From Rickettsiales bacterium (GTDB taxonomy: Bacteria; Pseudomonadota; Alphaproteobacteria; Rickettsiales; UBA8987), in contig OZ244955.1 of assembly GCA_965222525.1 (NCBI GenBank), forward strand, positions 1,259,813-1,323,812: a DNA stretch of 64,000 bases, in the 5' to 3' direction. The notes under the pieces were generated by a model, which saw only the letters and a list, made by a program, of their open reading frames with translations, had not been told where the DNA came from and did not search any database. Shown here piece by piece: positions 1 to 18,526 of this stretch. The position numbers were made by a program, and so were the translations under genes. How positions within the stretch are numbered: position 1 is the first letter of the stretch; every line of letters starts with the position of its first letter.

Positions 1-845
1 TCCCGTGTAACGCCGTGTATTTGCCCTACCTCTTCGAGAGTCTTCTTTCCTTTTCCATCCCATCCCCAGAATTGATACCAGGTTTCTTCGTAGCGTTTAT
101 TCTTGAACATGAAGAGTTTTAGCAGTGCTGCTAATTCACCTTCTACAGTATTGTCTTCATTCTGGAGTAGTTTTTCATATTCAGCAGCTAGCTCCTGCTT
201 GCGTGTAGACCTAATTTTCTCTCTGTTTTTCTCACGTAGCCCAGAAACCGTTTCTTGGTTCCAATCGGTAATCTTCATACCAAAGGATAAACCGAAGCGT
301 TTCAGCGCATCTTTCAGTTCTTGAACAGTCTTCTTACCACAACTTTGCCTGTGATAGAGGTCTTGCTCTTTCAGTTGAACCAATTCGCCGATCAAGTTGA
401 TATTATCTTCAGGTGCGATGTACCCGCCCGAAAGGTCGCCTAGGTCAAGCTCGTGATGGAATTGTTGCTTTTTGATGGGTTTAACTACATTCAAGGCCCT
501 GACTGAAAGCTTTAAATCTTCTACTGGTCTTAGAAGGGCAAGGTTGCTGCCTGATGCAATAGGCGGCTTTTCTGGCTTTGAATCAACAACAGCTTTTTTC
601 GGAAGTTTCAGGCCAGCAAACTCGTCTAATGCCTCTTCTATCTTTTTAACCGAGGTCCACCCTAGCCCGGGCAAGGTAACAAGCGAGCGTGGGTCTTTTT
701 TCAGTAAATCACCAATCGTATTTATTCCCAGGCTATTTAACCTTTTTATCAACGCAGGTGATATATCAAGCTCCGAAATAGGGACTTCATTGATATCGTC
801 TGCTTCGTGACAAGGTGCTTGCATTTGTATTGCTGCCTGTAACAT
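1..845 (-). CDS. Protein with two RNA polymerase alpha-CTD-like domains and a sigma-70 region 4 HTH (partial; runs off window start; absent from ORF track)
   Basis: Manual translation from ATG at 845: ...EVPISELDISPALIKRLNSLGINTIGDLL...LPGLGWTSVKKIEEAL...LRPVEDLKLSVRALN...IGELVQLKEQDL...CGKKTVQELKDALKRFGLSFGM...KKTLEEVGQIHGVTR. Open to position 1. Confidence 0.85.
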   Translation of the reverse strand, partial: MLQAAIQMQAPCHEADDINEVPISELDISPALIKRLNSLGINTIGDLLKKDPRSLVTLPGLGWTSVKKIEEALDEFAGLKLPKKAVVDSKPEKPPIASGSNLALLRPVEDLKLSVRALNVVKPIKKQQFHHELDLGDLSGGYIAPEDNINLIGELVQLKEQDLYHRQSCGKKTVQELKDALKRFGLSFGMKITDWNQETVSGLREKNREKIRSTRKQELAAEYEKLLQNEDNTVEGELAALLKLFMFKNKRYEETWYQFWGWDGKGKKTLEEVGQIHGVTR

Positions 846-860: not shown

Positions 861-2543
861 CTAGGCAGCATACAAAAATGCTGACTGGGTTGCTATCTCG
901 TTCATTTGACGCCCAATTTCCTGCAGAAAGTCAGTAAAGTCAGGAAAATACTCGTTGGACAACACGCGTTCAAACATTAGGGCATTAACATACTCAAAGA
1001 AAGCAACTTCGTAAAATAACCTTTTGAAAACTGGATCATCAACGTCTTCTTTATACGCTGCCGCAATTTGTGGATGGTCAAGATTCACCTTAATGGTTCT
1101 TTCCGACTGCACGTAACGTGTTCGCCACTCATCTTTGCCTAAATGTTCTGCCTTAACGTGGAATCCACCACGCGGCCTGTTCTTTTGCTGTCCACCACCT
1201 GGGTTAGCGGTAGTTGTGGGTTCGTCCTCATTTTTCTCAAGCCCCTGCTTAAGTTCAGGTGGCGGAGCGTCAGTTTCCGGTGTTGGTTCAGGCTTCTCGT
1301 CACCGACCCTATCTGGCAGTAAAGGTTCGCCTGTTTCAGACGCAGGGATAATGGTGCCAGGAACTAGGAAGCTATCATCGTCACCTTCGGTGCTATCCGG
1401 GTCATTTGGCACAACGTCAGCACCACCAGATGAGAGAGCTTTCTTTGATTTAATGAGTTCAGATCGAAATTGGTTGAAGTGCTTATTGATAACCTCACTA
1501 ACTTCTCCTTCGATTCGGCGAAACTTCTTAGCCTCTTCTGATTTACGCTCCTCTTTTTTGCGCCGAACTAATTCTTTTCTAATCTCTTCGACCGCACCAG
1601 AGATAAACCCATAAAGCATCCGTACTAATTGATTGCTGGCATTCAGTTGTCCACTGCGGGAAGAGTCAAATGCCGGGGGGTCTTCTTCCTTATCAAGGTT
1701 AGGGACTTCGATAGTTCCAAATATATATTCCGCACAGTCTTTGCCCTCACTTCCTGCCAAGGTTATTTCGTGTACTTGGTTTGAAGAAATGATTTTCACA
1801 CCTTGTTGATTGCTTTCAAGCGGAATACCAGAAACCTTTATGCAAAGAGTTACATTGCCGAGTAACTTTGCAACCTCGGGGTCTGGTGTGAAGTCTCTTT
1901 CAAAAGCTGCAGCGGGTTCTTGGTACTCACACTTTGAGCCATTAACATAGACACTACAGTTTGCGGGCCACCCAATTAGGTTTTGCTCAATGTAACCGAC
2001 GATCGGTTTTTCCTTAATCTTTTTGAAATCTTTGAAGAACTCAGTAATCGTGACTATTGTACGGTTTGGTTCCTTGGTTTTCTCATTCGTAACGATTTCA
2101 CTTACGGGGACTCCCTTATCTTTTCCTATATATGCCTTAACATCGTCCTTTTTCAGTTCTACCACGTTTCTTAGGCCGTTTCGTACGGTGTCAATCTGCA
2201 AGCTGTTGGCGATTGCGAAAGCAGCAGATTTTCCTGTTCCGAACATTCCACGGCCAATACGTCCTTGTTTGCGCTCAAGGTTTTCCGCGTGCATGGTAAA
2301 GAAGTGCTGTAGTCCAGCTCTATCCATCCCCATGCCATTATCAATGATCTCTATTTTGCTGGTGGTGATATTGACGTCTACCCTGGGGTTAACGCTGTTG
2401 TCTTGGTATTGGAGGCCATTCGCAACGTATTCCCATATTACATTCTTTGGGTGTTTAAAGCCCTCGGCGTTGTGTATGAGATCACGACATACATCGCTCT
2501 TTAACTCTATATGTGGCAGGGCCGCTGTATTGCTAGTTGCCAT
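861..2543 (-). CDS. GHKL (HATPase_c, MutL/MORC-like) ATPase
   Basis: N box WEYVANG, G1 DNGMGM, G2 GRGMFGTGKSAA, acidic/Pro-rich linker and C-terminal KVNLDHP. No nuclease motif recognised. Confidence 0.85.
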   Translation of the reverse strand: MATSNTAALPHIELKSDVCRDLIHNAEGFKHPKNVIWEYVANGLQYQDNSVNPRVDVNITTSKIEIIDNGMGMDRAGLQHFFTMHAENLERKQGRIGRGMFGTGKSAAFAIANSLQIDTVRNGLRNVVELKKDDVKAYIGKDKGVPVSEIVTNEKTKEPNRTIVTITEFFKDFKKIKEKPIVGYIEQNLIGWPANCSVYVNGSKCEYQEPAAAFERDFTPDPEVAKLLGNVTLCIKVSGIPLESNQQGVKIISSNQVHEITLAGSEGKDCAEYIFGTIEVPNLDKEEDPPAFDSSRSGQLNASNQLVRMLYGFISGAVEEIRKELVRRKKEERKSEEAKKFRRIEGEVSEVINKHFNQFRSELIKSKKALSSGGADVVPNDPDSTEGDDDSFLVPGTIIPASETGEPLLPDRVGDEKPEPTPETDAPPPELKQGLEKNEDEPTTTANPGGGQQKNRPRGGFHVKAEHLGKDEWRTRYVQSERTIKVNLDHPQIAAAYKEDVDDPVFKRLFYEVAFFEYVNALMFERVLSNEYFPDFTDFLQEIGRQMNEIATQSAFLYAA

Positions 2544-3126
2544 TCGCTTCCTCCTTAATCACTCTTTTTCCCAGTTCCTTTAGTGCATGGTGCGCGTCAT
2601 CACTGTTATCGAAGAGATTTTGGAACTGGGTTATTTTCTGTTCCCTAGCCTTACCTTGGATGTATTCGTTAATTCGGAACAAGTTTTCTAACTCTTTGCG
2701 TGTAATGCTATCTCCATTCCCGGAATGAAATTTTTGGTAGGCTGGCTCACCAAGAATTCGTTTCTTTTCCTTGTTGATCCAAGCCCTTTCCTTTTGTGAG
2801 AGCCTTGTTTCCTTGCTGCCTTCAGCCGTCAGTAGGTGCTTGTTTTCATCAACAAACTTAATTCCCTCTTCCGTCAGCATGTAGCCTTTTTCCGGAGTGC
2901 CAAGTGCTAAGCCACCTTTGTCCTCTTTCCTTGCATCAGATAGCCAACTAACAATTAACCGGTCAGAGATATAATCCCTTTTTCTCCAGCGGTATCTTCC
3001 GGGCACGATTTTATCCGCCTCTATAGCAATATCTTCTAGCTGCGCTTGCTGAGTTCGACCTCCTGCAACGTAGATTGCTAAAGCCATTATCTGGACATTG
3101 TTGAGGTCTTTGATACTAGCAGGCAT
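2533..3126 (-). CDS. Hypothetical protein with probable winged-helix domain
   Basis: 197 aa with a wing-like GYMLTEEGIKFV. Overlaps both neighbouring genes (translational coupling). Confidence 0.6.
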   Translation of the reverse strand: MPASIKDLNNVQIMALAIYVAGGRTQQAQLEDIAIEADKIVPGRYRWRKRDYISDRLIVSWLSDARKEDKGGLALGTPEKGYMLTEEGIKFVDENKHLLTAEGSKETRLSQKERAWINKEKKRILGEPAYQKFHSGNGDSITRKELENLFRINEYIQGKAREQKITQFQNLFDNSDDAHHALKELGKRVIKEEANGN

Positions 3127-3347
3127 TATTTTAACTCGAATTTTTTGTTTGATTGTTTAGTTGAGAAGCGCTGCTTGGACTTCCGTAATTCTTCTCCTAG
3201 CGTAGCGTAAATCTTCTCAATATCCTCGTTAGAGTAGTCGTAGTTTGACCTGTTTGAGAGGTTTCCGATAAGCTGTATATATTTCAGCGCGTTGTTCACA
3301 CGGTTGGTTGCAAGCCGGGTAAACTTATCTCTTGGGGTTTCCTTCAT
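3126..3347 (-). CDS. Small basic helical protein, first gene of operon, possible regulator
   Basis: 73 aa KFTRLATNRVNNALKYIQLIGNLSNRSNYDYS. GGA-type RBS upstream; TAATG overlap with next gene. Confidence 0.65.
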   Translation of the reverse strand: MKETPRDKFTRLATNRVNNALKYIQLIGNLSNRSNYDYSNEDIEKIYATLGEELRKSKQRFSTKQSNKKFELK

Positions 3348-3383
3348 AATTGATTATCCTGCTAAATAGATGTCGTATGGTGT

Positions 3384-3426
3384 AGGCTACGCAATAATAT
3401 TGTTCGTGTCAACGTAATATTGCGTA
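3384..3426 (-). promoter_or_regulatory. sigma70-like promoter overlapped by an inverted-repeat operator
   Basis: Minus strand TTGACA-17-TAGCCT. Arms TACGCAATA (3388-3396) and TATTGCGTA (3418-3426) lie between divergent genes. Confidence 0.5.
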
Positions 3427-3458
3427 CATTTATCAAATATAGGTAATATTATCAATAT

Positions 3459-4160
3459 ATGGACGAAAAATACAGAAATATAGCGATATTTAGGAAAAGA
3501 ATTCTGGCTTGGTACAGGGCTGAGGGTCGTATGTTTCCGTGGCGAGAACAGGCAAGAAGCGATTATGAAAAGATTGTGGCAGAGGTTCTACTACAGAGAA
3601 CCAAGGCCGAGACCGTTGCCAAGCATTACGGCGATTTTCTGCAAACCTTCCCCGATTGGAAGCACTTAGCGGATGCGCCGGAAGAGCATATCGAACAAGC
3701 CCTCAAACCCTTGGGCTTGTACAAGCAAAGGGCCGGGGTTTTTAAATGTCTCTCACAAGCCATCATGCAAATGGAAGGGAATACGCCTTCCAAGCGTGCC
3801 CATATAGATAAGCTCCCCGGGGTCGGGCAGTATATTGCCAATGCTGTAGAGTTGATTTGTCATGGCAAGCGAAGACCGCTTATAGATGTGAACATGGCTA
3901 GGGTGCTGGAGCGCGTATTTAGACCAAGAAAGCTCGTTGATATTCGGTATGACCCGTACTTACAGGAATTGTCAAAGAAGGTGGTAAACAGCCCGTATGC
4001 GCGGGAGATTAACTTTGCGATTCTGGATTTTGCAGCAAAGGTTTGTAAGTCGAAAAATCCTCGCTGTGAAATATGCCCATTTACGAGATATTGCAGTTGG
4101 TATAATCAGGCAAGCGCCACGGCAGCTTCTCTTGGAGGTGTAACTGAGAACGTGGTTTGA
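3459..4160 (+). CDS. HhH-GPD [4Fe-4S] DNA glycosylase, MIG-type (T:G mismatch)
   Basis: VLLQRT, HhH LPGVGQYIA with Tyr at the MIG-diagnostic position, FCL CKSKNPRCEICPFTRYC, no MutT-like C-domain. Adjacent to a C5 MTase. Confidence 0.75.
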   Translation: MDEKYRNIAIFRKRILAWYRAEGRMFPWREQARSDYEKIVAEVLLQRTKAETVAKHYGDFLQTFPDWKHLADAPEEHIEQALKPLGLYKQRAGVFKCLSQAIMQMEGNTPSKRAHIDKLPGVGQYIANAVELICHGKRRPLIDVNMARVLERVFRPRKLVDIRYDPYLQELSKKVVNSPYAREINFAILDFAAKVCKSKNPRCEICPFTRYCSWYNQASATAASLGGVTENVV

Positions 4161-5578
4161 TAGTTGTTTTCCTGGGTTGACGCGGTGGTGAATAGAATTT
4201 CCGCAATCTTTTCGCCAATGGCTTTAGCAAGTAAAGGTGGAACCGCATTACCAACTTGCGTGTACTGGGGAACCTCAAATTTGCGTCTGTTGCCACCAGT
4301 GGTCTCTTTCGAGCGAAAGACAAAAGTATCGGGAAAGGACTGTAGTCTAGCCATTTCCCTTATTGTCATGGTTCTCGGCTTTGCTGGGTGTACAAAGTCA
4401 TCCGGTAGGCTAAGCACAGTTGGGGAAGGACTACTCCAACTGAGGCAGCGTTGACTGTGTTTCTTCGTTTTTAACTCCAGAATTAACGTAGCCAGCTCCT
4501 CGGGAGTATGGGCAAGCACCTCCTTGTCCGGCGAGACTGCCGGGTAAGTGGCCTTTTCTAGTAAGCTAGTTATTTCCTCGGGTGAGATAGTATCTTTGGA
4601 GGCTAGGGTGATAATTTTTGAAGGCACTTCTTGCTTATCAAGATATTGTATTAGGCGAAAACGTTTCACGATTTTCTCTTCATGGTTCCTGAGCCGGTGA
4701 TTGGGTAATTTGCTGTTATCTCTGTTTTCAAACGGAAGATTTAGACCGGTAGTGTAATTCCTCATTAAGTAAGCAAACTCACCCTGAGCTGTTCCGTATT
4801 TCTTATGTTCTTGGTTGATGGTATAGCCCCGGTTTCCTATGTCCCACAGCGCATCACGCACAGTTCTAAAGTTTTGTAGTGCTGGGACAGGGGCAAGGAG
4901 TGGGCTTTTTGAAGCAACCTTTTCTTGTGCAAAGCTAGATTTCCAGAACATGGGAGCAGTTGAAATACCGGCCTTCCTCGCAACGTCCATCCTGACTGCT
5001 ACTAACATAACCCTAGGTCGGTTCTGAGGTATTCCAAAGTGAGCAGCATCAAGCTCCAGTGGCTGAACTGCATACCCGGGGGGGATTTCATGAATTGCTT
5101 GGATAAGCTGTTTTACAGGCGTCTCTATACCGTGCTTGGTAAACATTTTGCGGATGCCAACCACGTTCTCCATGATAACCGCCTTGGGGCGGACAGCTTG
5201 AACAAATTTAAGGAAAAGCCACGGTAGCTTGTTTCTTTCATCGTGAGGATCTCTCCTGCCTGCTACAGAAAACCCCTGACAAGGTGGGCCACCTGCAACA
5301 AGGTCTATTTCAGAACCTTTAAGTTTGTCCATAATTGCAGGGTTGGAAATAACCTGCTGTATGTCACTTACCATTAATTTTTGGGCAAATTGTTTTTCTG
5401 CTGAGAGCGATAAGAAGTTATCCCAGTCATCACTGTCTTGGATGGATCGAATAAAGTTGTGATAATACGTCTCTGCAGCCATGGGGGACTTCTCAACAGC
5501 AAGCTCAAGCTCAAAGCCTGCACTGGCCAAGCCAAGCGACAGTCCTCCACATCCAGCAAAAAGATCAATATATTTCAT
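4106..5578 (-). CDS. dcm: DNA (cytosine-5)-methyltransferase
   Basis: Motifs DLFAGCGG, GGPPCQGFS, ENV, PQNRPRV, QVGNAVPP. Confidence 0.95.
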   Translation of the reverse strand: MKYIDLFAGCGGLSLGLASAGFELELAVEKSPMAAETYYHNFIRSIQDSDDWDNFLSLSAEKQFAQKLMVSDIQQVISNPAIMDKLKGSEIDLVAGGPPCQGFSVAGRRDPHDERNKLPWLFLKFVQAVRPKAVIMENVVGIRKMFTKHGIETPVKQLIQAIHEIPPGYAVQPLELDAAHFGIPQNRPRVMLVAVRMDVARKAGISTAPMFWKSSFAQEKVASKSPLLAPVPALQNFRTVRDALWDIGNRGYTINQEHKKYGTAQGEFAYLMRNYTTGLNLPFENRDNSKLPNHRLRNHEEKIVKRFRLIQYLDKQEVPSKIITLASKDTISPEEITSLLEKATYPAVSPDKEVLAHTPEELATLILELKTKKHSQRCLSWSSPSPTVLSLPDDFVHPAKPRTMTIREMARLQSFPDTFVFRSKETTGGNRRKFEVPQYTQVGNAVPPLLAKAIGEKIAEILFTTASTQENNYQTTFSVTPPREAAVALA

Positions 5579-6296: not shown

Positions 6297-7532
6297 CTAT
6301 CCTGTATATGCTTCCTGTAGCTTCGAGAGGGCTTGATGTCCATCTCTCACCGGGTGGCTATAATACGAAAGCGTCACGCTGGGGTCTTTATGGCCAACGA
6401 TCTGTGCCACCAATGGCACCTCGATCCCCTGCGCTTGCAAGATGGAAACCACCGCGTGACGGGCGGCATGGGTGGTCGTGTATTTGACGCCATGCTCTGC
6501 TAATTTCTCAAAAGCCGGAACCCACACGCGCTGCCTGAAATTGCTGTACAGCAGCACACCTCCACCGACCTTCTTGATTGGCCATGGGCCTTTCGCACCT
6601 TGACTCGGGAATACCAATTCCAGATTTCCGTTGCGACGGGGGCAACGTACGCGCCATTCCAGAAGCCATTCACGCAACAGCGAGTTCATCGGGATGAGCC
6701 GGTCGCCTGATTCAGTCTTCGTGAACTCGCAGATTTTGCCATTCTTCTCCAAGGAGCGGTGGATATGGATCGTGTTGTCCTCGAAACTGATATCGTCCCA
6801 GTGCAGTGCCAACTGCTCGGAAATCCTCGTGCCGGTCAGGAATCCCCACGCGACGTACAGGCCCCATTTTGAATCCTCGCGCATGACACGGAGCACTGTG
6901 CTGATTTCATCGGGGGAGAGAATGACCTTCTTAGTCTTTGGCGGACTCTTGGTCAATCTACGGGGCATTTTGGGCGTCCGCACCCCGAGGTCTTCTTCCA
7001 CCATGCACAGGATAGCATGAAGCCGCTGCATGGCACGGTTAGCGGAGTAATGGCCGACATGCTCGATCAGCTCGTTATGCCAACTGCGAATCCGCGCCGT
7101 CGTTAGCTTGTTCACTTTGACGTTGCCAAGCATGGACTTCAGCGATGAACCATCCGGCATATCACCCGTAAGTGCGTATTCTCGCCGCTGACGCATATCC
7201 GCCCCGATCAGCAGGGGGCCGACCAAGTAGCTTCGGTAGGTAATCAACCCCTTGTAGGTGGTGGATTTGATGCTGTGCTTCTTGTTTTCTACCCAGTAAT
7301 CGTAACATTCCTCCAGCGTTGGAACCTGCTTCTCATCGCAGAGCGTACCCTGTTCCAATTCGATCATGATGCGCTTCTGCTCTGCAATGGCTTCCTTCTT
7401 TTTGCGGAAGTAGCTTTGCCTCCGCTTGCCAGTCTCCGGGTCGGGGTAATTGACGGCATACTGGACATATTTGCGGATGCTTCCGTCCTTCAGTTTTCGC
7501 TTCTTCTGCTGGGTTTGTATGGTGACGTTCAT
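6297..7532 (-). CDS. int: Tyrosine recombinase/phage integrase
   Basis: TGTRISE, HAARH, VGH and catalytic Tyr in YYSH; N-terminal arm-binding-like domain. Start at MNVTIQ after an AGAGGAG RBS. Confidence 0.92.
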   Translation of the reverse strand: MNVTIQTQQKKRKLKDGSIRKYVQYAVNYPDPETGKRRQSYFRKKKEAIAEQKRIMIELEQGTLCDEKQVPTLEECYDYWVENKKHSIKSTTYKGLITYRSYLVGPLLIGADMRQRREYALTGDMPDGSSLKSMLGNVKVNKLTTARIRSWHNELIEHVGHYSANRAMQRLHAILCMVEEDLGVRTPKMPRRLTKSPPKTKKVILSPDEISTVLRVMREDSKWGLYVAWGFLTGTRISEQLALHWDDISFEDNTIHIHRSLEKNGKICEFTKTESGDRLIPMNSLLREWLLEWRVRCPRRNGNLELVFPSQGAKGPWPIKKVGGGVLLYSNFRQRVWVPAFEKLAEHGVKYTTTHAARHAVVSILQAQGIEVPLVAQIVGHKDPSVTLSYYSHPVRDGHQALSKLQEAYTG

Positions 7533-7809
7533 AATTGATTCTCCTCTCTGGTTAACGCCAGCCTGAACGCAGGCCAACATCCCAGAAAATCACAGCGAAA
7601 ATCTCCACACAATATTGGACGTGCAACCCTTATTGTAGACGCAAAAGTAGACGGACAGGGCCAGATAGGAGAAAAGCCCCGTCCGTCTTGACAGAAACGC
7701 CACTGGGCGAAGGTGACGTTCACATGCTTATGCTTCTGTATCTCAATACCTCGGTGTTCGAGTCTAAAAGTATTCATGTTTCTCATTCCATTATTCCGGC
7801 GTTAATTCC

Positions 7810-8035
7810 TGAAAATTTTAATTTTTAAAACGAGCTTAAAAGCCTAAAAGTTTAAAAATCCGAGCTGTCATTTTGTCACGTCACGTCAGCCCTCTTTGAG
7901 GGAACCCGTTAGCCTAACTCTGACTGCTTTTTTTCGTTTCCATACAATCCACATGGGAAGAAAGTGAGAAATGGGTAGCGCTGGCCTCGGATTTGCTCAT
8001 AACCCTATGACGTGACATGACATCGTGACGGTCAC
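7810..8035. other. Putative replication origin with iteron-like repeats
   Basis: AT-rich tract, then GTCACGTCACGTCA and an inverted TGACGTGACATGACATCGTGAC array at the 3' end of the primase-helicase gene. Confidence 0.45.
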
Positions 8036-10395
8036 ATCCCTTCGTAATCCATCTTCACATAATCATTGGAAAGATGAGATGCAGGTAACCATATTGCTAA
8101 TGAACGTACGCTGCCGGAGAAGCGCTTTTGTTTCTCTTTTCTGGCTCCCTGCACCCGCTGCAAGGCGCTTACCCATGCACCGCCATCCCACAGGGTATCT
8201 TTAAATATTTTTCTGATACCCGGGTGAGAATTGGCGACAAGAAACCCGTCACCTGTCCAACGAATACCCCAGTCTTCCAACTCATTTTTGATGAAAGTAT
8301 AGTCTTCCCCGTTTGGGTGAGCCTCGTATTTAATCATTGCGAGATTCGCGCCTACACTACGATCACTGATGCGGTGGCCAAGAAGCATATTCAGGCATTC
8401 CACGGCATCATCTTCTTCATGGGCTTCCGCCAATTCATTGATAAGTGCAGTATGTTCGCCAAGCAGCTCGTGGCCATCTTCCTCGGTCATTTCCCTCTGG
8501 TGAAGCATTACCCATGCTGCTGCCATAAGAGAAGCCATATTCAATGCATGACGGCTCTCGCAGGGAGGAAATACGCGTTGCAGAGTTTTGATAGCTTTCA
8601 GTATGTAATCCGTATTTTTAATAACCTGCTTGCACCAATTAGGCCCGACATCATCCAACGCATGACTCATTTCAGCAATGCGACTGCTGACAGTCTTATC
8701 GTTGGCGTGTTTGTGGAGTTTTAAAACCACGATACGCGAGCGGTCTGCAGCCGTTACCATAAAGGGGTTGATTGCACCCATGAGAAAACAGGAGCGAATA
8801 CAGAATTCCATGGCCTTTCCGTCCGGCGTTCCGCGAGCAATACTGTATTTAGCAGAAGAAGCGCTACGAATGAGCTTGATGACGGATTTCATCCTACCGA
8901 CATTCTGGTCGCTTTCAAATTCATCCAGAATAACGGGACGGCTATCCGGCCCGGTTTTCTGTCGAATGCCAGCCTCTGTGCTTTGACCATCAAGGGCAAT
9001 GCCGACCGGTTCGAGTAGGTTCATCAACGCTAGGATGATCGTAGTTTTACCTGCGTTCTTGGGGCCGCTGATGAAGATATGTGGCCTCCAATCCACCACC
9101 CCGCAAATGACCGCAAGGGCCGCCCAACCAAGCAGCAAATATGCTTCAGAAGGTGAACTCCAGTTGAATTGCTGGAAAAGTTCGAGGACTATTTTGGCAT
9201 CTATATCCGCCTCCTTTTCCCCTCGTGCCTCCAGCGGAAGATGACATACATAAATATACTTTGAATCCTGTGGTGGTTTATCGCCCCAGTTGATTACGAT
9301 TGCGCGGTTACTATCCATCCATACGCCGCGCCCGCGCACTCTTGAGGTGTCAAAACCACCCTTGCTACGACATAACTGCATCATGCTGTCCGCTGCATCC
9401 CGGCAATCTATGCCGATGATTTGGCCTTTCATATTTCGCTTTGGGAAGTTGGTGAGCCAAAAGTGCATGGGAGCCATGTTCAGTAGCGTGCCTTCTGTCA
9501 TGAGACGATTGGAGCTTTCCACCAAGAGCAGCGAGCGCATTTGATCGAGAAATACGTATCGTCCATCTTCCAGATAGCCAAGTGGTAGTGGCCCAGTATC
9601 ATCCGGAGCGTATTCCCCGCGTGATTTCAGGCCAAGCCCCTTTTCCTTAGCGCTTTCGAGCATCTCCAAGGTTTCTTCGGCGGTATTTCCCTTGTAGTCC
9701 TGGTGAAAAAGCGCGTTGAGGCAGTCTGCCACCCATTTAAGATCATCAGTAATATGGGCGATCCCTGAAGCAGTCAGGGCCAGCATTAACTCATGCCCCT
9801 TGACGGTTGCTCCACTTTCAACAATTTCCCATGCGGCTTCGTATTTTACGACACGCTTGATTAGCTCGTATACGACAGCATCCAGAACCGGCAGGTTGTT
9901 TTGCTCAATATCCAACAGGGGAGTTTCGTCCCAAACATACGCATTGCCATTTGGATGAATCGAAGGGGGAATGACGATCATCCCGGTGTCTATCATCATC
10001 TCCACACCGAAGGCTTTCTGGCCTTTGGCTTTCAACTTAGCACTTTTGAGTCCGTTATCCGCCTGACAGAAAGCGGTAAGTCCCTTGCTACCAATTTTTC
10101 CTGAAACGTAGTTACGAAGTACGGTTTTGATGAATTCGGAGAATCCGGGGTGATCGACATCTATAGCAGAAAACAATCTGCCGTTTCTCAAACGGGTGCC
10201 CGTGGCAAGGCCAATATTGCCCGCACCATATTTTTGTTTCAGCGCGTCAATATACTCTTCGCTTGGAAGTTCAGGGACATGCTTGTTCCAATCAGGATTA
10301 GCCGCTCCTTTTGCTTTCTTACGAACGGCGACAGGACTATAACCAGCTTCAATATAAGCATCTGCCCAGTCTTCATATATGCGTTGTGCTACCAT
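8032..10395 (-). CDS. Bifunctional primase/polymerase fused to a P-loop helicase
   Basis: GNIGLATG, IDVD, IPPSIHPNG..YVW (Prim-Pol); Walker A GPKNAGKT and Walker B VILDEFE. Confidence 0.88.
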   Translation of the reverse strand: MVAQRIYEDWADAYIEAGYSPVAVRKKAKGAANPDWNKHVPELPSEEYIDALKQKYGAGNIGLATGTRLRNGRLFSAIDVDHPGFSEFIKTVLRNYVSGKIGSKGLTAFCQADNGLKSAKLKAKGQKAFGVEMMIDTGMIVIPPSIHPNGNAYVWDETPLLDIEQNNLPVLDAVVYELIKRVVKYEAAWEIVESGATVKGHELMLALTASGIAHITDDLKWVADCLNALFHQDYKGNTAEETLEMLESAKEKGLGLKSRGEYAPDDTGPLPLGYLEDGRYVFLDQMRSLLLVESSNRLMTEGTLLNMAPMHFWLTNFPKRNMKGQIIGIDCRDAADSMMQLCRSKGGFDTSRVRGRGVWMDSNRAIVINWGDKPPQDSKYIYVCHLPLEARGEKEADIDAKIVLELFQQFNWSSPSEAYLLLGWAALAVICGVVDWRPHIFISGPKNAGKTTIILALMNLLEPVGIALDGQSTEAGIRQKTGPDSRPVILDEFESDQNVGRMKSVIKLIRSASSAKYSIARGTPDGKAMEFCIRSCFLMGAINPFMVTAADRSRIVVLKLHKHANDKTVSSRIAEMSHALDDVGPNWCKQVIKNTDYILKAIKTLQRVFPPCESRHALNMASLMAAAWVMLHQREMTEEDGHELLGEHTALINELAEAHEEDDAVECLNMLLGHRISDRSVGANLAMIKYEAHPNGEDYTFIKNELEDWGIRWTGDGFLVANSHPGIRKIFKDTLWDGGAWVSALQRVQGARKEKQKRFSGSVRSLAIWLPASHLSNDYVKMDYEGM

Positions 10396-10412
10396 GATAA
10401 ATCTCCGGGTAT

Positions 10413-10613
10413 TTATGATTGTTGCATTGCCTTGAGGATGTCCGAGCGCCGGACATACTTCTTGGCATTGAGTAATGAGTAAGTGGGAATCAACCCGGCA
10501 TTGGCCGCTCGGCGTATTTTCCAAGCGGGCAAGCCTAATTGTTCTGCCGCTTCGTCATAGGTCAGCAGCGACTCAGGCTGATCGCGTTGGTGGTTGTTTG
10601 GATTTTCGTTCAT
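10413..10613 (-). CDS. Excisionase-like HTH protein
   Basis: LLTYDEAAEQLGLPAWKIRRAANAGLIP...YVRRSDI. Confidence 0.85.
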   Translation of the reverse strand: MNENPNNHQRDQPESLLTYDEAAEQLGLPAWKIRRAANAGLIPTYSLLNAKKYVRRSDILKAMQQS

Positions 10614-10712
10614 CGCACATTCTCCATTCTTGTTTCGAATCGTCAGCAGGGCCGACAATTCAGAATGTGTGATAACCGGGTGTAAAAAGCCCGGCACCCC
10701 CAGGGGTATATG

Positions 10713-11516
10713 TTAGGCTGGTATCAATTCTTCTTGCAAAACAGGAGGAAGAGTGTCGGCTATAATCAACGGGTGTTGTAACATCTCTCGAATTTTCTTC
10801 TGGCTAATCTGCGTGTAGGTTGTTTTCAAATCGTCAATTGGAACTTCCTTTTCCTTACAGAGGGGTTCTTTCACCTTCTTTGTTTGCAGCATCCGGCTAA
10901 ACCATTCCGCCGGGTATGGTTTGAAAGGGGGAATTTTTCCTTTCGTAATGTCAAGGCATAGTCTTGCCAGCGCGAATTCCGCTTCGGCACGGTCTTCCTG
11001 TTTCAAGGAGGGGGAATGCTCGTGAATCCAGTGCGCGTACCAATGCATCTGAATCAGCATGCTGTTGTCGCGCAGGCCCGCTACTGCCTGCTCAAATTTT
11101 TTCTCAGAGGTATCATCAAACGCAATGAGTTCCGCGTAACGTCCAGCCAGAAAATTGAAATGTGACAATGCTGACAGGAATTCCGTTGTTACTTCGCGCT
11201 TTTTAAGACCTTCGATCACGATTTCACGATAATCAGGAATAGGTTCTTTGAAATGGTCAGGAATATGTTGTCGGATATCCTCCATAAACCCAAGCTCAAC
11301 GGCTAAATCCAGTAGCTTCTCATAGCGCCCATCCCCTTGGATATGAACGGTATAGGCATAGTTAATTTTGTCCTGATAGGGGCTTTTCACCTGCCCATAG
11401 GTCAGTAAGTTAAGCTTGAAACGCTCGAAATCTTCCGGCGTAGGAACCTCAAACCACTCCACGAGTTCGCAGATATTGGTGAATTCTTCTTCGATTTTTT
11501 CCCAGTCGATGGCCAT
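10713..11516 (-). CDS. Hypothetical protein
   Basis: Long ORF; likely start MAIDWEK after a GGGGAA RBS. No family recognised. Confidence 0.6.
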   Translation of the reverse strand: MAIDWEKIEEEFTNICELVEWFEVPTPEDFERFKLNLLTYGQVKSPYQDKINYAYTVHIQGDGRYEKLLDLAVELGFMEDIRQHIPDHFKEPIPDYREIVIEGLKKREVTTEFLSALSHFNFLAGRYAELIAFDDTSEKKFEQAVAGLRDNSMLIQMHWYAHWIHEHSPSLKQEDRAEAEFALARLCLDITKGKIPPFKPYPAEWFSRMLQTKKVKEPLCKEKEVPIDDLKTTYTQISQKKIREMLQHPLIIADTLPPVLQEELIPA

Positions 11517-11730
11517 GAATACGCATTCCCCTGATTTTTTGTCAACATAGCCAGAATTTGCCTGAAAAACAGTCATTTTCTTGCTTTTCTGCCCTTCCGA
11601 ACGTCCCAAGTGCGTGGTATTATGAAATGGTACGGTCGCGGGAATGCGGCCCCATTTCCCTATCATGATTGTTAGCTGCCCTACCGCAGGTGAATTCCGG
11701 CGGTGGGTATTTGTGCTCTGGAGGTTGCGT

Positions 11731-13023
11731 ATGACCAAACCATTACACATAGAAAACAGGCTTGTTTCCGGCCTTAAACCCTATGAGAAGAACAGTAAAA
11801 TTCACGATAAGAAGCAGGTGAAACAGATCGCCGCATCGATTAAGGAGTTTGGCTTCAATGTGCCTATCCTGATTGATGGCGACAATAATATCATTGCCGG
11901 GCATGGCCGCGTGCTGGCCTGTAAGGAGTTAGGCATCGAGGAAGTCTCGGCCATCTGTGTCGAGCATCTGACGGATGCCCAGAAACGCGCCTTTGTCATT
12001 GCCGACAACAAACTTGCGGAGAATGCCGAGTGGGATACGGAAATGCTTGCGCTCGAACTCAAGGAACTGGGGAGCCTGGATTTGAGCTTCGATTTGGACA
12101 TCACCGGTTTTTCCACCAGTGACATCGATCTGATTATCAGCGATGATATCTCGACGGACGAAGAGGACGGCACCTCAGATGAAGAACTGCCGGATATGGC
12201 GGATGTGCCGATGGTTGCCGCATTCGGTGACATTTGGCAACTCGGCAGGCATAAACTGATCTGCGGCGACTCACGGGATGCCAAAACGTATGAACGCCTG
12301 CTGGGTGAGCGCAAGGCGGATATGGCACTGGCCGATCCGCCCTATAATGTGCCAATCGGTGGTTATGTCTTAAAAGACAGAAAACCTCGCCATACGGAAT
12401 TTGCCATGGCCTCCGGCGAGATGAGCAACGAGGAATTCACGGAATTTCTATCCGCTATTTTCGGCAACCTAGCGGCTTTCAGCAAGAACGGTTCCATCCA
12501 TTATATTTTCATGAACTGGCGGCATATGTATGAACTGCTGACTGCCGGGCAAAAGCATTACAAGGAACTCAAGAATTTGTGCGTATGGAACAAAACTAAC
12601 GCCGGGCTCGGCGCTTTCTACCGCAACAAACATGAACTTATTTTCGTGTTCAAGAACGGCAGCAAGCCGCACATCAATAATTTTGAGATGGGCGACCATG
12701 GCCGGTTCCGTACCAATATCTGGGACTATCCTTCCAGCAGCAGTTTTTACAAAGACGCTGTTACCGGTGAAACCAGGGATCAGCTCATCAAGCTGCATCC
12801 TACGTTGTGCCCGGTGCAAATGCTGGTGGATATGATGATGGATTGCTCAAAACGCAACCAACTGATTCTTGATCCGTTCTGCGGTAGCGGCCCATCGCTG
12901 ATTGCCGCCGAGAAAACGGGAAGGTGCTGCCATGCCATCGAATACGAGCCTAAATTTGTCGATGCGGCGATTTATCGCTGGGAAAAGTTCCCCGGTGAGA
13001 AGGCTATTAAAGCGCTTTCCTGA
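11731..13023 (+). CDS. ParB-like N-terminal domain fused to N4/N6 DNA methyltransferase
   Basis: IAASIKEFGF..PILID...IAGHGR (ParB); DPPYN and LDPFCGSG (MTase). GGAGG RBS. Confidence 0.9.
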   Translation: MTKPLHIENRLVSGLKPYEKNSKIHDKKQVKQIAASIKEFGFNVPILIDGDNNIIAGHGRVLACKELGIEEVSAICVEHLTDAQKRAFVIADNKLAENAEWDTEMLALELKELGSLDLSFDLDITGFSTSDIDLIISDDISTDEEDGTSDEELPDMADVPMVAAFGDIWQLGRHKLICGDSRDAKTYERLLGERKADMALADPPYNVPIGGYVLKDRKPRHTEFAMASGEMSNEEFTEFLSAIFGNLAAFSKNGSIHYIFMNWRHMYELLTAGQKHYKELKNLCVWNKTNAGLGAFYRNKHELIFVFKNGSKPHINNFEMGDHGRFRTNIWDYPSSSSFYKDAVTGETRDQLIKLHPTLCPVQMLVDMMMDCSKRNQLILDPFCGSGPSLIAAEKTGRCCHAIEYEPKFVDAAIYRWEKFPGEKAIKALS

Positions 13024-13648
13024 AGGTGAGGTTAATGCGCTGGCTACCAAGAAGCGGATGCTCGCCATCTTTCAGCGGAGCAATGCCATGGTAGACAAGG
13101 CGGGATTCGCCACCGAAGACGAAAACATCGCCGTGATGCAGTGGAATTTTTTTGGTTTTGTCGGAACGTTCCAAGCCGCCGAATAAAAAGGTGGCGGGCA
13201 AGCCCAGTGAAACGGAAATGATAGGGTGACTAAAGTCTTTTTCATCGCCGTCCTGATGCAGGGAAAGCTTTGTCCCTGGCTCGTAGCGGTTGATAATGCA
13301 GACATCGGGTGCGAATCCATGATAGCCAACTTCTTTCGCCGCTTGTATGGCTATATCCGAAAGCAGCACTGGCATCTGCGGCCATGGTTTGCCCGTTTCC
13401 GGATCAAGCGTTTCATACCGGTAGCCAGATTTGTCGGAAACCCATCCCATGTTGCCGCAGCTTGTGATGCCAATAGACATGTATCGTCCATTCGGCGTAA
13501 GCATGCGCCGAAACGGTGAAACCGCCTCAATCTGCTTTATGGCAGCAAATATTTCGGCGGCATCGTCCAACGCATACCCTTCCAGCAATACCGCGCCGGG
13601 GGTAATTTGGATGGTACGTTTTTCATCGGCAAAAAGTGTCTGAGTCAT
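13007..13648 (-). CDS. alkB: Alpha-ketoglutarate-dependent oxidative demethylase AlkB
   Basis: GWVSDKSGYRY, INRYEPG, LHQD, YHGI, RINLTFR. Confidence 0.93.
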   Translation of the reverse strand: MTQTLFADEKRTIQITPGAVLLEGYALDDAAEIFAAIKQIEAVSPFRRMLTPNGRYMSIGITSCGNMGWVSDKSGYRYETLDPETGKPWPQMPVLLSDIAIQAAKEVGYHGFAPDVCIINRYEPGTKLSLHQDGDEKDFSHPIISVSLGLPATFLFGGLERSDKTKKIPLHHGDVFVFGGESRLVYHGIAPLKDGEHPLLGSQRINLTFRKAL

Positions 13649-13689
13649 AAACCATTTATAACAAACAAAACCATTTTATGGAGGATAAT

Positions 13690-14136
13690 ATGCCCAGAAA
13701 AAAGAAAGAAACCGAAAAGATCGACGAGGCCAGCATACTGGAACAGTTGCTTCAGGAATTGGAAGAAGAGATCGACGCCAAGGAAGGCAAGGTCAGTCGG
13801 AAAATGACCAAGGGTCAGGCGCTCATCAAGAGCATGGTCAATGAAGCCCTAAAAGGCGATCAGCGAATGATGACCAATGTATTGAAGTTTATCGAGAAGC
13901 TGGATGCACTACAATCGGCCAAGAAAGAGGAAACTGCCGCTGATAATCAGGAACTGGATAAGGTCGATTGGGAAATAATGTTACGGTATTATTGGCGATA
14001 TCGGCATCATCTGGAGTTAGAATGGGAGCGGATGAAGAAGGAAAATCCTGGCGCGTTCAAGGGGGAGTGGACACGAATCGATATGAAAGATGCGCCATGG
14101 TACGAGGCAATTTACGGCTCTGAAGGAGCTGACTAG
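13690..14136 (+). CDS. DUF5681-like protein (N-terminal motif apparently missing)
   Basis: RKMTKGQALIKSMVNEALKGDQR resembles genes that usually follow the ParB-MTase in alphaproteobacterial satellite-like elements. Confidence 0.55.
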   Translation: MPRKKKETEKIDEASILEQLLQELEEEIDAKEGKVSRKMTKGQALIKSMVNEALKGDQRMMTNVLKFIEKLDALQSAKKEETAADNQELDKVDWEIMLRYYWRYRHHLELEWERMKKENPGAFKGEWTRIDMKDAPWYEAIYGSEGAD

Positions 14137-14924
14137 GCGGCGAAATAGCGTTTTCCATAGCCGTGTACGACATTGACGATGTTCTTGCCTTCCACCTGAT
14201 TGCCGCCGCATAACCCGCAGGTCACACATTTGGCGCGCCGGTTTGTCAGATCATGGGCCGGGCAGAGGATTTCTCCCTCGGTAATCTCCGACAACTCCTT
14301 GGCCACGCGGAAAGTACGCCAGCCTTTCTTCCAAGCTTCCTGCGCCTCCTCCAGCGTGTCGGCGGAAAACATGTAGAGGTCGGTACGGTACTCAACATTG
14401 CCGAGATCAGTGAAATGGCTGTAGCCAGTATAGCCTGCTGCTTCCGAAATCAGGCTATCCCAGATATAAGAAGGTACGGCAGCAGGATCACCATATGCGC
14501 CCAACCGGACTTTCCTATCCCTACCAATGGCGGCCAGTTCACCGTGTCCCTTCGCTACCGGGTATTTCCCGGCCTTATAACCGCGCCAAATCGTCAATGG
14601 CGCATTGCGGACGAGTACATAGCAGGTACGATTCCTAGCACTCTGCGCTTTCGGGTTTTCAACAGGCTCCCCTTTTAGCTTGCAATTTCCGCAGATGGAA
14701 TAATCTTCACCGGAGCGGTTCGCCGTTACCGGGTCGATATCCTCCCGCAGGACGAAGGTCTGTACCATGTCACCGGTCTTGATGTTCTGCGAGTGATGAA
14801 TGGCAATGACGATAATCGGCTTGCCGTCAATCAGTGACGGCCCGTTGAAAATCAGGCTTCCCGTCGTCTTGGCTGCCTTGCCGTTTGGCTTGGTAATTTC
14901 TTGATTGAACAGGTCTTTTTGCAT
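14133..14924 (-). CDS. Cys-rich phage-type protein (putative Fe-S, Gp88-like)
   Basis: NIKTGDMVQT, SICGNC, CYV, RLGAYGDP, GYSH, ILCPA, CVTCGLCGG. Confidence 0.6.
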   Translation of the reverse strand: MQKDLFNQEITKPNGKAAKTTGSLIFNGPSLIDGKPIIVIAIHHSQNIKTGDMVQTFVLREDIDPVTANRSGEDYSICGNCKLKGEPVENPKAQSARNRTCYVLVRNAPLTIWRGYKAGKYPVAKGHGELAAIGRDRKVRLGAYGDPAAVPSYIWDSLISEAAGYTGYSHFTDLGNVEYRTDLYMFSADTLEEAQEAWKKGWRTFRVAKELSEITEGEILCPAHDLTNRRAKCVTCGLCGGNQVEGKNIVNVVHGYGKRYFAA

Positions 14925-14956
14925 ACACGCAAAAGTCACAGAAAAGCGTATTCCTG

Positions 14957-15158
14957 TCAATCTATTGTGAGATTACTTTCGTGATCTACGCCACGTCTAC
15001 AGTTCTTGGCCTATCACCCGATACAAACGAATGATACCAAGTTCACCCGGTTACGTTCCACAGCAAATGTCATACGCCGTTTTCCACGCCATAGCAGGCG
15101 GTAATGAGGTGGAATCTACGATAACTGCTTGCAATGGATGAACATCCGGATTAGCACT
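14957..15158 (-). pseudogene. Degenerate, 5'-truncated copy of the ORF at 17834-18187
   Basis: Reads LIRMFIHCKQLS*IPP...**AKNCRRGVDHESNLTID with in-frame stops; cut at the att site. Confidence 0.65.
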
Positions 15159-15203
15159 CTCCGAAGGCGGGGGTCGTGGGTTCGAATCCCGCCGGGTCCG
15201 CCA
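15159..15203 (+). tRNA. 3' fragment of tRNA-Arg(CCG), island att site (not a complete tRNA)
   Basis: CTCCGAAGGCGGGGGTCGTGGGTTCGAATCCCGCCGGGTCCGCCA: anticodon loop, T arm and CCA end. No D arm or 5' acceptor strand upstream. Confidence 0.85.
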
Positions 15204-15242: not shown

Positions 15243-15977
15243 TTACTTTTCGGGAAAAGCCAGCGCCAGCAATTCGGTAACGGCTAACTGCGTATCCTGT
15301 TTTACATCGTCAATATGCTTCTTTGTAGCGTTATAGCGTCTGTTATGTGCCGAGTTATCTGCAAGCTTTTTGAATGACTTTAAAGCCCCAATAGTTGTAC
15401 GTCCCACATTGAGTTGTGTATCTTTTTCTAGCACGTTAAGCAGTCCAGCAAACATCATAAAGTGGCCGTCGTGCCCTTTTAGCTCTGTATCTCTTCCAGC
15501 CGCCTCGTATATCTCGATAATCAATGTTTCTAAGAGCCTTCTAAGCATCACTGCACAACAATCAAATAGAGAGGCGTCGTAGCTAGCATTAACCTGTAAT
15601 ACCACTTTCTTGATATATGATCTGGTATTTTGGAAATCGCCACGTTGTAGGAGGCTATTAGATTTCTTAACCGGTTTGTTTTCGAGTAAGTGCAAATATT
15701 TGGAGTCTAATTCCCTAATTGCGGTCGGGTTTAGTCGAAATCCTTTCTCTTGTTTGCCACGTACAGTCCGTTTGTCTTTTGCTAGCCTGCTTTTATCACG
15801 GGACCTATTTACTGCATTAAACCCTGCTTCTTCAATTTCATCGCAAAGTTGAGAAAATTCAATATATGTGTTGTTACTGCTATGCTGATGCCACCACAAT
15901 AAAACAACGAATCTATCAATGACTTTAAGGTCATGTATCTCTTCCAAGTATAGAAAATCTTCCAACGGTTTCGTCAT
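15243..15977 (-). CDS. wHTH + HEPN (DUF4145-like) protein
   Basis: YDASLFDCCAVMLRRLLETLII...KKLADNSAHNRRY; N-terminal wing-like GFRLNPTA. Confidence 0.7.
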   Translation of the reverse strand: MTKPLEDFLYLEEIHDLKVIDRFVVLLWWHQHSSNNTYIEFSQLCDEIEEAGFNAVNRSRDKSRLAKDKRTVRGKQEKGFRLNPTAIRELDSKYLHLLENKPVKKSNSLLQRGDFQNTRSYIKKVVLQVNASYDASLFDCCAVMLRRLLETLIIEIYEAAGRDTELKGHDGHFMMFAGLLNVLEKDTQLNVGRTTIGALKSFKKLADNSAHNRRYNATKKHIDDVKQDTQLAVTELLALAFPEK

Positions 15978-15987
15978 AAAGATTTCC

Positions 15988-16605
15988 TTACTGAATAGGT
16001 TGTTTTGTACAGAATGCCTTCACCACAGCATCAGCCTGTAATACGTTAGCAGGGTTCAGTTTAATAACATCGCCATGCTTAGCTAACCAAGGGCACTTAT
16101 TAAAGCTTCTGCTAGGGTTCTGAGGTTCGGCTCCAAGCTCGTGTAAAATCTTTTTCACCTGAGTGTATGTACAATCACCAAGCTTCGCATATTTGAACCA
16201 TTCCACCAGTAGAGTGGAGACAATAATGACTGACGTCAGTGCATTGTTTCCCCTCTTGGGTGTGTTGGCTTTAAAGGCTGCCCAGTAGTGCTGATCAATA
16301 TGCAAAAACGGTTCTTCGTGAGATGGGTAGCAAGCACCGATTATTTCATCGGACTCTATGGCAACAGCATTAGCCCACCTTACAACAGCATCGCCATTGC
16401 CTGAATCTGGGGAAGGTGGCAAATGAGTGGGGGCAGAGGAATTCTCCCCATTTTCGTTGTCAGTTTTTACGTGTGTGATCAACTTTGGCTTCTCGGTCTT
16501 CTTCGCTCCTTGCATTACACTATTCCAAAGTACTGGGTCGTCTGACTCTGCTACAAGAACATCGTTGGCATAGAGTTTGACCACGAGATTTGCTTTTAGT
16601 TCCAT
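15988..16605 (-). CDS. Hypothetical protein with probable C-terminal wHTH
   Basis: Strong AAGGAGG RBS; TYTQVKKILHELG..PQNPSRSF...IKLNPA. Confidence 0.65.
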   Translation of the reverse strand: MELKANLVVKLYANDVLVAESDDPVLWNSVMQGAKKTEKPKLITHVKTDNENGENSSAPTHLPPSPDSGNGDAVVRWANAVAIESDEIIGACYPSHEEPFLHIDQHYWAAFKANTPKRGNNALTSVIIVSTLLVEWFKYAKLGDCTYTQVKKILHELGAEPQNPSRSFNKCPWLAKHGDVIKLNPANVLQADAVVKAFCTKQPIQ

Positions 16606-16618
16606 TGTCCTCTCCTCC

Positions 16619-17146
16619 TTATTCAGCAGCACCAGAAATCATTTCTTCGACTTTCTTCAATCCTGCATGGCTGAGTTTGTATGTCTTTCGCGCTTGTTGG
16701 CTGCCGCCGCTCTTCTTAAGTTGTAGAATCAAGGCAGGTTTAGTGCTCTTCAAGGAGTCTAGTGCCTTGGTAATATTAGCAATTTTATGACCAAGATGGG
16801 TGAGCTCTTTATTGGCCGCTTGAGATGCAAAATTTTCTGCCCCTTCACAGGCCTGCAGCCAATATCCAGAAACAAGAGCTTTTTCTGCTGTAGTGGTAGG
16901 GTTTGCTAGGTCATACAACTCTGCAAAGGTTTCGATACTGGCTGTTTGTCGGACAGTTGTTGTCGAAACGTTATTATCTTGGGTGTCATTCTGTTCGTCA
17001 GTATCAAAATTATGTGTTGGCGCATCGATTTCTAGCCGGTTTACGATATACTGGACAACACGGCTACGTGCGCTTTCGTCGAGGGGTGATAAGGCGTCAT
17101 GAATAGTCTTCATAGCATCAAATTCGGCATCGTTAGATTGGGTCAT
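16619..17146 (-). CDS. Hypothetical protein with probable C-terminal wHTH
   Basis: AAGGAG RBS; ALVSGYWLQ...NITKALDSL...YKLSHAGLKKVEEM. Confidence 0.65.
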   Translation of the reverse strand: MTQSNDAEFDAMKTIHDALSPLDESARSRVVQYIVNRLEIDAPTHNFDTDEQNDTQDNNVSTTTVRQTASIETFAELYDLANPTTTAEKALVSGYWLQACEGAENFASQAANKELTHLGHKIANITKALDSLKSTKPALILQLKKSGGSQQARKTYKLSHAGLKKVEEMISGAAE

Positions 17147-17264
17147 GTATCATTCTCCTTCATGATTTATGCACTTGATATATGCACCAAGTCTTGAAGT
17201 TCAAGAGGTAAATGCAAATATTTTTGTAATAACCAATTATCGGCTTGATTATTAACGCAATAAA

Positions 17265-17294
17265 TTGACCGAGTAGTATTCGGCGTGATAGATT
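17265..17294 (+). promoter_or_regulatory. Promoter of leader RNA (copy B)
   Basis: TTGACC-18-TAGATT with extended TG, matching copy A. Confidence 0.55.
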
Positions 17295-17299
17295 CCGTG

Positions 17300-17520
17300 C
17301 AGAGCCAGTATGTTGGCTCCGGGGCTTAAGAACCTCTAACGAAAGCGGCAGGGCACCTGCCGTCACCAAACTGCCACCCTACGCCATGCGTCGGGGTGGC
17401 GACGTTATGTCCAGGCGCGAGCTAAAAGCGTCGCGGTCGTACTTTCGTTCGACTTCTTAACACCCCGGCACCAGTGCGAAATCGCTGGTGCCGTTTTCGT
17501 AACCAACGAAAGGGTGTCAT
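17300..17520 (+). ncRNA. Structured leader RNA, C4/ash-like (copy B)
   Basis: Same core as 5728-5960 with compensatory stem changes. Confidence 0.6.
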
Positions 17521-17521
17521 T

Positions 17522-18187: not shown

Positions 18188-18199
18188 GTATGTAAACAC

Positions 18200-18490: not shown

Positions 18491-18526
18491 TAAAATAAAT
18501 CGCCACCGCCCGGCCTTTTAGCAGAA

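Follow-up and report, generated by a model that had tools for sequence, protein, structure and literature searches.

Bacterial proteins that join alpha-CTDs, sigma regions and HARE-HTH domains were reportedly described by Aravind and Iyer in 2012 (Cell Cycle), who are said to have predicted that they inhibit polymerase binding. Since a protein type with alpha-CTD, sigma4 and HARE-HTH domains is thus probably known, the idea of an RNA polymerase mimic, under which the protein of this study had been presented in a preliminary description, is probably not new. Silencing by a GHKL clamp is the activity that eukaryotic MORC proteins are known for. Bacterial MORC-like ATPases are described as helpers of restriction nucleases and helicases, and according to passages of PMC2292703 some MORC/paraMORC restriction operons also encode a B3 (VP1/RAV) protein. 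A system reminiscent of Mza appears in a passage of PMC9523054, and PglW of BREX type 2 has, according to a part of PMC12839542, a NERD nuclease, kinase domains and an inactive STAND ATPase.

The window, i.e. the whole stretch of 64,000 nucleotides of a Rickettsiales contig (OZ244955.1) that was analysed here, carries at its left edge a copy of a three-gene, optionally four-gene, system that is carried on mobile islands. In this cassette a 726-aa protein, here called the reader, is encoded beside a GHKL ATPase of MutL/MORC type and a 197-aa winged-helix protein. On balance, we take the reader to be the DNA-targeting subunit of a nuclease-free GHKL-ATPase conflict system on mobile islands.

The reader protein and its relatives

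The reader gene lies on the minus strand with its start at position 845, and its frame is open at the left edge of the window, which is probably why it was missed by the ORF track. The first 281 codons fall in the window (1..845), and the full gene in the genome (G000:C1:1260657-1258477) encodes 726 aa, reaches window coordinate -1335 and has its stop 5 nt away from a tRNA-Arg(CCG). The protein is built of two alpha-CTDs, a sigma region-4 HTH, four winged helices, two of them HARE-HTH-like, and a B3 DNA-binding barrel; the rest of sigma4, the winged helices, the barrel and an acidic tail are encoded outside the window. The preliminary description had listed the two alpha-CTDs and the sigma4 HTH, a list that is correct for 281 of the 726 residues; the three domains named make up only the first 40 % of the protein. 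Both domain types were recovered with Pfam, RNA_pol_A_CTD in two stretches (E 6.6e-20) and Sigma70_r4 (PF04545) at residues 267-290 (E 4.8e-6), above the cut-off.

The reader was modelled with AlphaFold2 on 8 sequences (mean pLDDT 77.7, pTM 0.58). Alpha-CTD 1 (residues 16-77; 615..800, minus strand) matches Pfam PF03118 and HHH_5, and its structural similarity to alpha-CTD was borne out by the model, with Z 11.5 to 1z3e_B and an rmsd of 1.3 Å over 67 residues. Superposition of the reader with the E. coli alpha-CTD gave a target TM of 0.89-0.90. Both alpha-CTDs claimed earlier are thus present, but the first is degenerate, with 25 % identity to the host RpoA CTD and Ala31 at the position of R265 (E. 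coli numbering). Alpha-CTD 2 (about residues 102-195; 261..542, minus strand), defined by alignment to E. coli alpha and host RpoA, is 41 % identical to the host RpoA CTD and keeps the R265 equivalent that is lost in copy 1; its R116, N119, G170 and K172 correspond to R265, N268, G296 and K298 of E. coli alpha. The insertion in this domain, earlier put at about 24 aa, measures 23 aa (411..479, minus strand) against both host RpoA and E. coli alpha. It is lineage-specific and predicted to be disordered, residues 125-146 having pLDDT <50 in the model, and of 233 alpha-CTD copies only 3 have a long insert and exceed 100 residues in length (P0001, P0002, P0003). Being so rare and disordered, the insert was ruled out as a functional novelty and is a lineage quirk. 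A helical linker joins alpha-CTD 2 to sigma4 in the AlphaFold2 model.

The sigma region-4 HTH (residues 233-298, of which 233-281 are inside the window at 1..149, minus strand) has an intact -35 recognition helix, which carries R281/E282/R285. It is followed by winged helices at about residues 307-371, 373-441, 445-506 and 512-575, by the B3 barrel at about residues 598-695 and by the acidic tail. Structural matches to winged helices at residues 372-443, 445-507 and 512-577 reached Z 8.1-8.7, which is near the level common for this fold, and the first winged helix (307-371) was assigned from the secondary structure of the model alone. The barrel matched FUS3 (Z 8.3, rmsd 2.8, 89 residues), VRN1 (Z 8.1) and the restriction subunit LlaJI.R1 (Z 7.4). 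By language-model features residues 440-580 are nearest to HARE-HTH clusters (0.93; 27 of 30 named hits in one set); the HARE-HTH Pfam family (PF05066) matched 0 of 18 reader cores, and the reader gene of this genome had no match either. No profile similarity was detectable among the four winged helices (hhalign probability under 9 %), the Pfam scan of the 18 cores gave no family in more than 1 member, and a sequence search of solved structures with the reader core gave nothing under E 0.37. Neither the reader nor any of 49 proteins scanned, 47 of which had been picked as long or unusual members of homologue lists and loci, showed a catalytic domain or a sigma region 2 or 3.

A profile search with the reader gave 1,655 clusters at E<=1e-30, a number that is an upper bound because the profile includes the alpha-CTDs. 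The family analysed consists of 156 proteins, 10 from earlier searches and 146 that were added from the best 150 of the 1,655 clusters, and it leans to close relatives because it was drawn from these best 150. The number of alpha-CTDs varies from none in 22 relatives, some of which may be truncated or diverged, through one (54), two (62) and three (17) to four in a single protein. Almost all relatives have the whole core from sigma4 to B3, and the domains conserved best are winged helices 3 and 4. Among 400 genomes of the class and 400 of the phylum, the core profile matched 2 and 1, respectively, so the family is rare and scattered. Several readers have extra domains, namely zinc-ribbon repeats, helicase-associated (HA) repeats, a second B3-like domain or DUF7226 (L002:8741-11845, P0134, P0167, P0205, P0200). 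Shorter proteins with sigma4 and HARE-HTH occur in Patescibacteria-type bins, in a housekeeping context without the ATPase (L006:9848-11005, L011:540-1559, L014, L015).

R265, N268, G296 and K298, which we take together to be the DNA-binding face of alpha-CTD, have their equivalents kept in 222/231, 177/231, 223/233 and 135/233 copies, respectively. At most exposed alpha-CTD positions, less than a third of the copies have the host residue, and the median identity of the 233 copies to the host RpoA CTD is 31 %. In sigma4, residues T280, R281, E282, R283, R285 and Q286 are each kept in 136-153 of 155 sequences, and most positions outside the HTH match the host RpoD in under 35 % of them; the loop preceding the HTH is family-specific, the residues beyond it drift, and the last helix of RpoD has no counterpart. 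Since the DNA-contact residues are conserved while the other surfaces have drifted, selection has kept the DNA-reading faces and not the whole polymerase surface. As stated in passages of the respective papers, R265 is crucial for UP-element binding and the last helix of sigma touches the beta-flap and MotA (PMC2988021), and the -35 element is read by R584, E585 and R588 of sigma (PMC2613000). Passages of PMC2988021 also state that T4 Alt and ModA modify R265 and that AsiA binds regions 4.1-4.2, the -35 contact residues included; because these phage proteins hit the same residues, conservation alone does not separate a DNA reader from a decoy.

The ATPase cassette and its island

All four genes of the cassette are on the minus strand, in the order 73-aa protein, winged-helix protein, GHKL ATPase and reader, and all four reading frames are intact here, in about 4.7 kb. 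The helical 73-aa protein (3126..3347), recognised by alignment, is an optional first gene. The 197-aa protein (2533..3126) has an N-terminal winged helix and a helical C-terminal domain (pLDDT 92, top structural Z 8.9), and no Pfam family was found in more than 1 of 24 members; its gene overlaps the ATPase start by 11 nt. The ATPase (861..2543, 560 aa; HATPase_c_3, E 3.5e-12) has its stop 15 nt ahead of the reader start. Its motif residues E38, N42, D68-G70-G72, G99-G102-T103-G104 and T162 are invariant in 21 of 21 relatives, and a low-complexity linker is also present. The C-terminal domain of 105 aa is conserved but belongs to no named family, and neither a PDB match at E 10 nor a consistent Pfam family was found for it. 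A catalytic site may hide in this domain or in the 197-aa protein. No ATPase relatives in viral contigs were found among 149 pattern hits, and a promoter scan of 3000-3600 gave 1 site compared to 1.5 expected.

A metagenome scan for the ATPase gave at least 49 loci, of which 31 close ones (L016-L046) were kept and 18 weak hits dropped; the loci counted include near-duplicates (L024/L025, L022/L044 and L028/L002). Among the matches listed, the winged-helix gene is directly upstream of the ATPase in 29 of the 31 close loci, the 73-aa gene is present in 7 (and also in L004), and the reader is present in 20, downstream in 13, divergent upstream in 6 and upstream in tandem in 1, so the linkage persists through rearrangement. 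Ten of the other 11 listed loci end within 74 nt of the ATPase, too early to tell, and the eleventh follows an L002-type reader over its first 153 residues and diverges after that. The whole cassette is also found in L002, L004 and G053, among them a Smithella bin and a Cloacimonadota bin. Over 18 loci the ATPase and reader distances correlate (Spearman 0.91, 0 of 2000 permutations), which shows co-inheritance only and not contact, because kin share history. The wider reader family clearly also lives alone. Reader relatives, three of them truncated or fragments and one distant, are present in L003, L005, G239 and G678, in whose genomes the ATPase was not found by a profile search, the profile being one that finds G000 in a separate run; and among 10 distant plasmid hits of the reader, none of the 4 inspected had such an ATPase annotated alongside.

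Complex prediction with ATPase residues 14-554 and reader residues 232-690 gave a score of 0.49, compared to 0.00 for the best control, with runs agreeing in at least 87 % of contacts and partner pLDDT of at least 81. The mark for the complex score is reached by 116 of 157 solved pairs and 2 of 215 mismatched pairs, and at 0.60 or under there are only 18 solved pairs and both mismatches; the prediction thus weakly supports an association of the two proteins. In one locus (L022:386-3547) the N-terminal 351 residues of the ATPase are fused in frame to the reader, and the winged-helix gene upstream is broken. This fusion is probably a deletion product and, with that look and the broken gene, it was dropped as evidence of ATPase-reader binding.

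The cassette is located at the left end of an element of 16,784 bp. The two ends of this element are marked by a 9-bp repeat that lies in the anticodon arm of the host tRNA-Arg(CCG), and in the empty site a tRNA is restored. The 3' half of this host tRNA comes after the right-hand core repeat (15159..15167, plus strand), and the left core is at window -1625. The host tRNA gene is thus split by the island in its anticodon arm, the stretches concerned being G000:C1:1258155-1258471 (window -1657 to -1341) and window 15159-15203. About 200 bp inside, the island brings a complete replacement tRNA-Arg(CCG), not merely a 3' half, and this is the sole CCG tRNA in the ARAGORN list for the genome. The tyrosine integrase (6297..7580, minus strand; PF00589, E 3.3e-19) opens a region (6297-14960) with a primase-polymerase with a P-loop domain, a ParB-fused N6/N4 methyltransferase, an AlkB-like oxygenase, and DUF5681 and DUF7227-like genes, a set that is that of a satellite-like integrative element. 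At 3459-5578 a C5 cytosine methyltransferase gene is convergent and overlapping with that of a MutY/MIG-like HhH-GPD glycosylase, and no cognate restriction nuclease for this pair was recognised in the island. On the other side of the island, the minus-strand stretch 18527-18994 opens with an inverted near-copy of the first ~60 residues of a CCA-adding-enzyme-like gene (L001:12555-13796), which points to an earlier rearrangement or else to a second island at 15243-20042. The ATPase was searched for in 40 relatives and was not found.

For 17 ATPase-bearing loci and one further locus, 58 neighbours picked by hand were scanned without a background control; restriction-modification, toxin-antitoxin or defence-type genes were present in 9 of the 17 loci and not in the other 8. 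These were Mrr_N, three Eco57I-type methyltransferases, Vsr with Dcm and NOV_C, two AbiE, a Schlafen helicase, PIN, and an OLD-type ATPase with NYN and MmeI. There was no constant partner: a relative of the Dcm was found in 1 and the glycosylase in 0 of the 31 listed loci, many of which are short, and neither was supported as a fixed part of the cassette. Neither was a helicase or nuclease found as a constant neighbour among the island ORFs, the listed loci, whose contigs are short, or the 58 neighbours.

Proposed function and alternatives

A promoter-binding subunit of the ATPase system, one of two roles offered in the preliminary description, is supported by the gene linkage, the co-descent, five further DNA-binding folds and the weak complex prediction. 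That the reader targets DNA for the ATPase is based on its domain folds, the ATPase motifs, the tight linkage, the co-descent and the conserved DNA-contact residues, and from these we infer DNA binding and a complex of the two proteins. The alpha-CTD(s) and the sigma4 helix would grip UP-like AT-rich DNA and -35-like hexamers, as in RNA polymerase, and the winged helices and the B3 barrel would contribute a read-out of sequence or base modification; these would define the presumed target. The reader would bind and recruit the ATPase, which would clamp or loop DNA at the reader-bound sites. Given that the cassette encodes no nuclease, incoming DNA would most likely be occluded or trapped, polymerase being blocked at strong sigma70-type promoters, or else be passed to an unlinked nuclease. 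From its genomic context, the cassette would seem to defend against phage or plasmids.

The other role offered was that of a decoy. Phage enzymes or anti-sigma factors would hit the alpha-CTD and sigma4 copies, which would turn the ATPase complex on and arrest the cell. R265, the target of Alt and ModA, is indeed among the best-kept positions (222/231), and the -35 contact residues, which according to a passage of PMC2988021 are bound by AsiA, are kept in sigma4. The number of alpha-CTDs varies from 0 to 4 and the N-terminus takes up zinc ribbons or a B3-like domain, as sensor regions often do, and the alpha-CTD-sigma4 stretch aligns to positions 806-971 of BREX PglW, the C-terminal half of which is proposed in part of PMC12839542 to be a sensory hub. 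We nevertheless consider a guard of this kind unlikely. The surfaces around the DNA-contact residues have drifted in both domains, 22 of the 156 relatives (some possibly truncated) gave no alpha-CTD match, and other DNA-binding folds make up over half of the protein, the most conserved domains being winged helices 3 and 4; an effector domain for a sensor to trigger was not found. Methyltransferase genes lie beside the cassette in this genome and in L023, L031, L033, L034 and L068, and it is conceivable that the reader senses methylation and that the ATPase loops DNA for a neighbouring or unlinked methyltransferase-nuclease pair (here Dcm and the MutY/MIG-like glycosylase, 3459-5578). Such an accessory role in restriction-modification would agree with passages of PMC2292703, in which prokaryotic MORC/paraMORC ATPases act mainly in restriction operons, and with parts of PMC10853773 and PMC3417536, where HARE-HTH is proposed to read modified bases. 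However, the partners vary from locus to locus, as the counts for the Dcm and the glycosylase illustrate, and no helicase or nuclease is constant beside the cassette, which makes this role improbable.

A regulator of island or host transcription, i.e. a promoter-occluding repressor or an anti-silencer with the ATPase as its remodeller and not aimed at invaders, would agree with UP and -35 reading residues that are kept without regions 2-3, and stand-alone plasmid relatives of the reader adjoin replication, repair or H-NS genes. Inhibition of RNA polymerase binding is also what has reportedly been predicted for alpha-CTD/sigma/HARE-HTH proteins. The sporadic spread over distant hosts and the frequent defence neighbours fit a conflict system, however, and no constant regulated gene set is found alongside, so we hold a regulator to be just as improbable as the restriction accessory. 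The Sigma70_r4 match above the cut-off could also point to an ordinary alternative sigma factor, but this is hardly credible: Sigma70_r2 and r3 matches were found neither in the reader nor in any of the 49 proteins scanned, and the NCBIfam sigma models cover only about 30-70 residues, far below their cut-off. The reader was rejected as an alternative sigma factor on these grounds.

If the reader does target DNA for the ATPase, the cassette could be a nuclease-free bacterial counterpart of eukaryotic MORC silencing, in which the reader would find strong sigma70-type promoters on incoming DNA by the UP-element and -35 contacts of RNA polymerase, the HARE-HTH-like and B3 domains would tell self from foreign, and the GHKL clamp loaded by the reader would trap the promoter and stop early phage or plasmid transcription with the DNA left uncut. 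We regard this more specific scheme as rather doubtful; if it were true, the phage enzymes that modify R265 would be a takeover tool and a counter-defence at once. With no recognisable nuclease and a targeting subunit derived from the promoter-reading parts of polymerase, the cassette provides a direct test case for asking whether a GHKL clamp allows bacteria to silence invading DNA instead of cutting it. Work on it would also give the alpha-CTD/sigma4/winged-helix protein class a first function, and the copy described here, with its four intact frames in a short stretch, is a good one for cloning.

Comparison with known systems

Like the alpha-CTD/sigma/HARE-HTH class, the reader is a single chain without enzyme domains that combines alpha-CTD with a sigma4 HTH and with winged helices that may be of the HARE-HTH type, and its relative P0099 carries all three Pfam families. 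Unlike that class, the reader subfamily adds a C-terminal B3 barrel and scores below the HARE-HTH Pfam cut-off and, compared to the class as it is reportedly described, the reader gene is linked to those of a GHKL ATPase and a winged-helix protein. A name for the cassette was not found in the full-text literature searched, the 2012 HARE-HTH and transcription-apparatus papers and the Mza description being outside that search.

BREX type 2 PglW is a defence protein in which winged-helix-like modules likewise come after an alpha-CTD, and the cassette readers align to its profile in the stretch given above. The reader is without NERD, kinase or STAND domains and scores 34 bits compared to a cut-off of 990; as only the alpha-CTD-sigma4 stretch matches and there is no BREX operon, PglW membership was ruled out.

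The anti-phage system Mza (MzaA, a sigma70-family protein, NF041931, and the ATPase MzaB, NF041932) also has a sigma4-bearing gene beside that of a GHKL ATPase. The reader, however, matches MzaA only at the ~50-residue sigma4 region, with 27.9 bits compared to a cut-off of 800, and the cassette ATPase matches MzaB only at the ATP lid, with 16.8 bits compared to 850. Z1, DUF4420 and AIPR genes were not found among the island ORFs or the 58 neighbours scanned and, together with the bit scores, this ruled out Mza membership. The PADLOC MzaB model matched 0 of 18 cassette ATPases and scored E 9e-178 with L010. This Sphingobium locus (L010:8657-19118) is of the Mza type, with MzaB, Z1, DUF4420 and AIPR, and its leading gene encodes a sigma4 protein of 1084 aa whose match to MzaA is confined to sigma4; the locus has only the short sigma4 and ATPase parts in common with the cassette.

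With the MORC/paraMORC ATPases, as described in passages of PMC2292703 and of a preprint (10.64898/2026.09.30.754977), the cassette ATPase shares intact GHKL motifs, a conserved C-terminal extension and a location on mobile DNA. In contrast to the MORC/paraMORC operons, the cassette has no SF2 helicase, Z1 protein, nuclease or constant methyltransferase, and the partner of its ATPase is a polymerase-derived reader.
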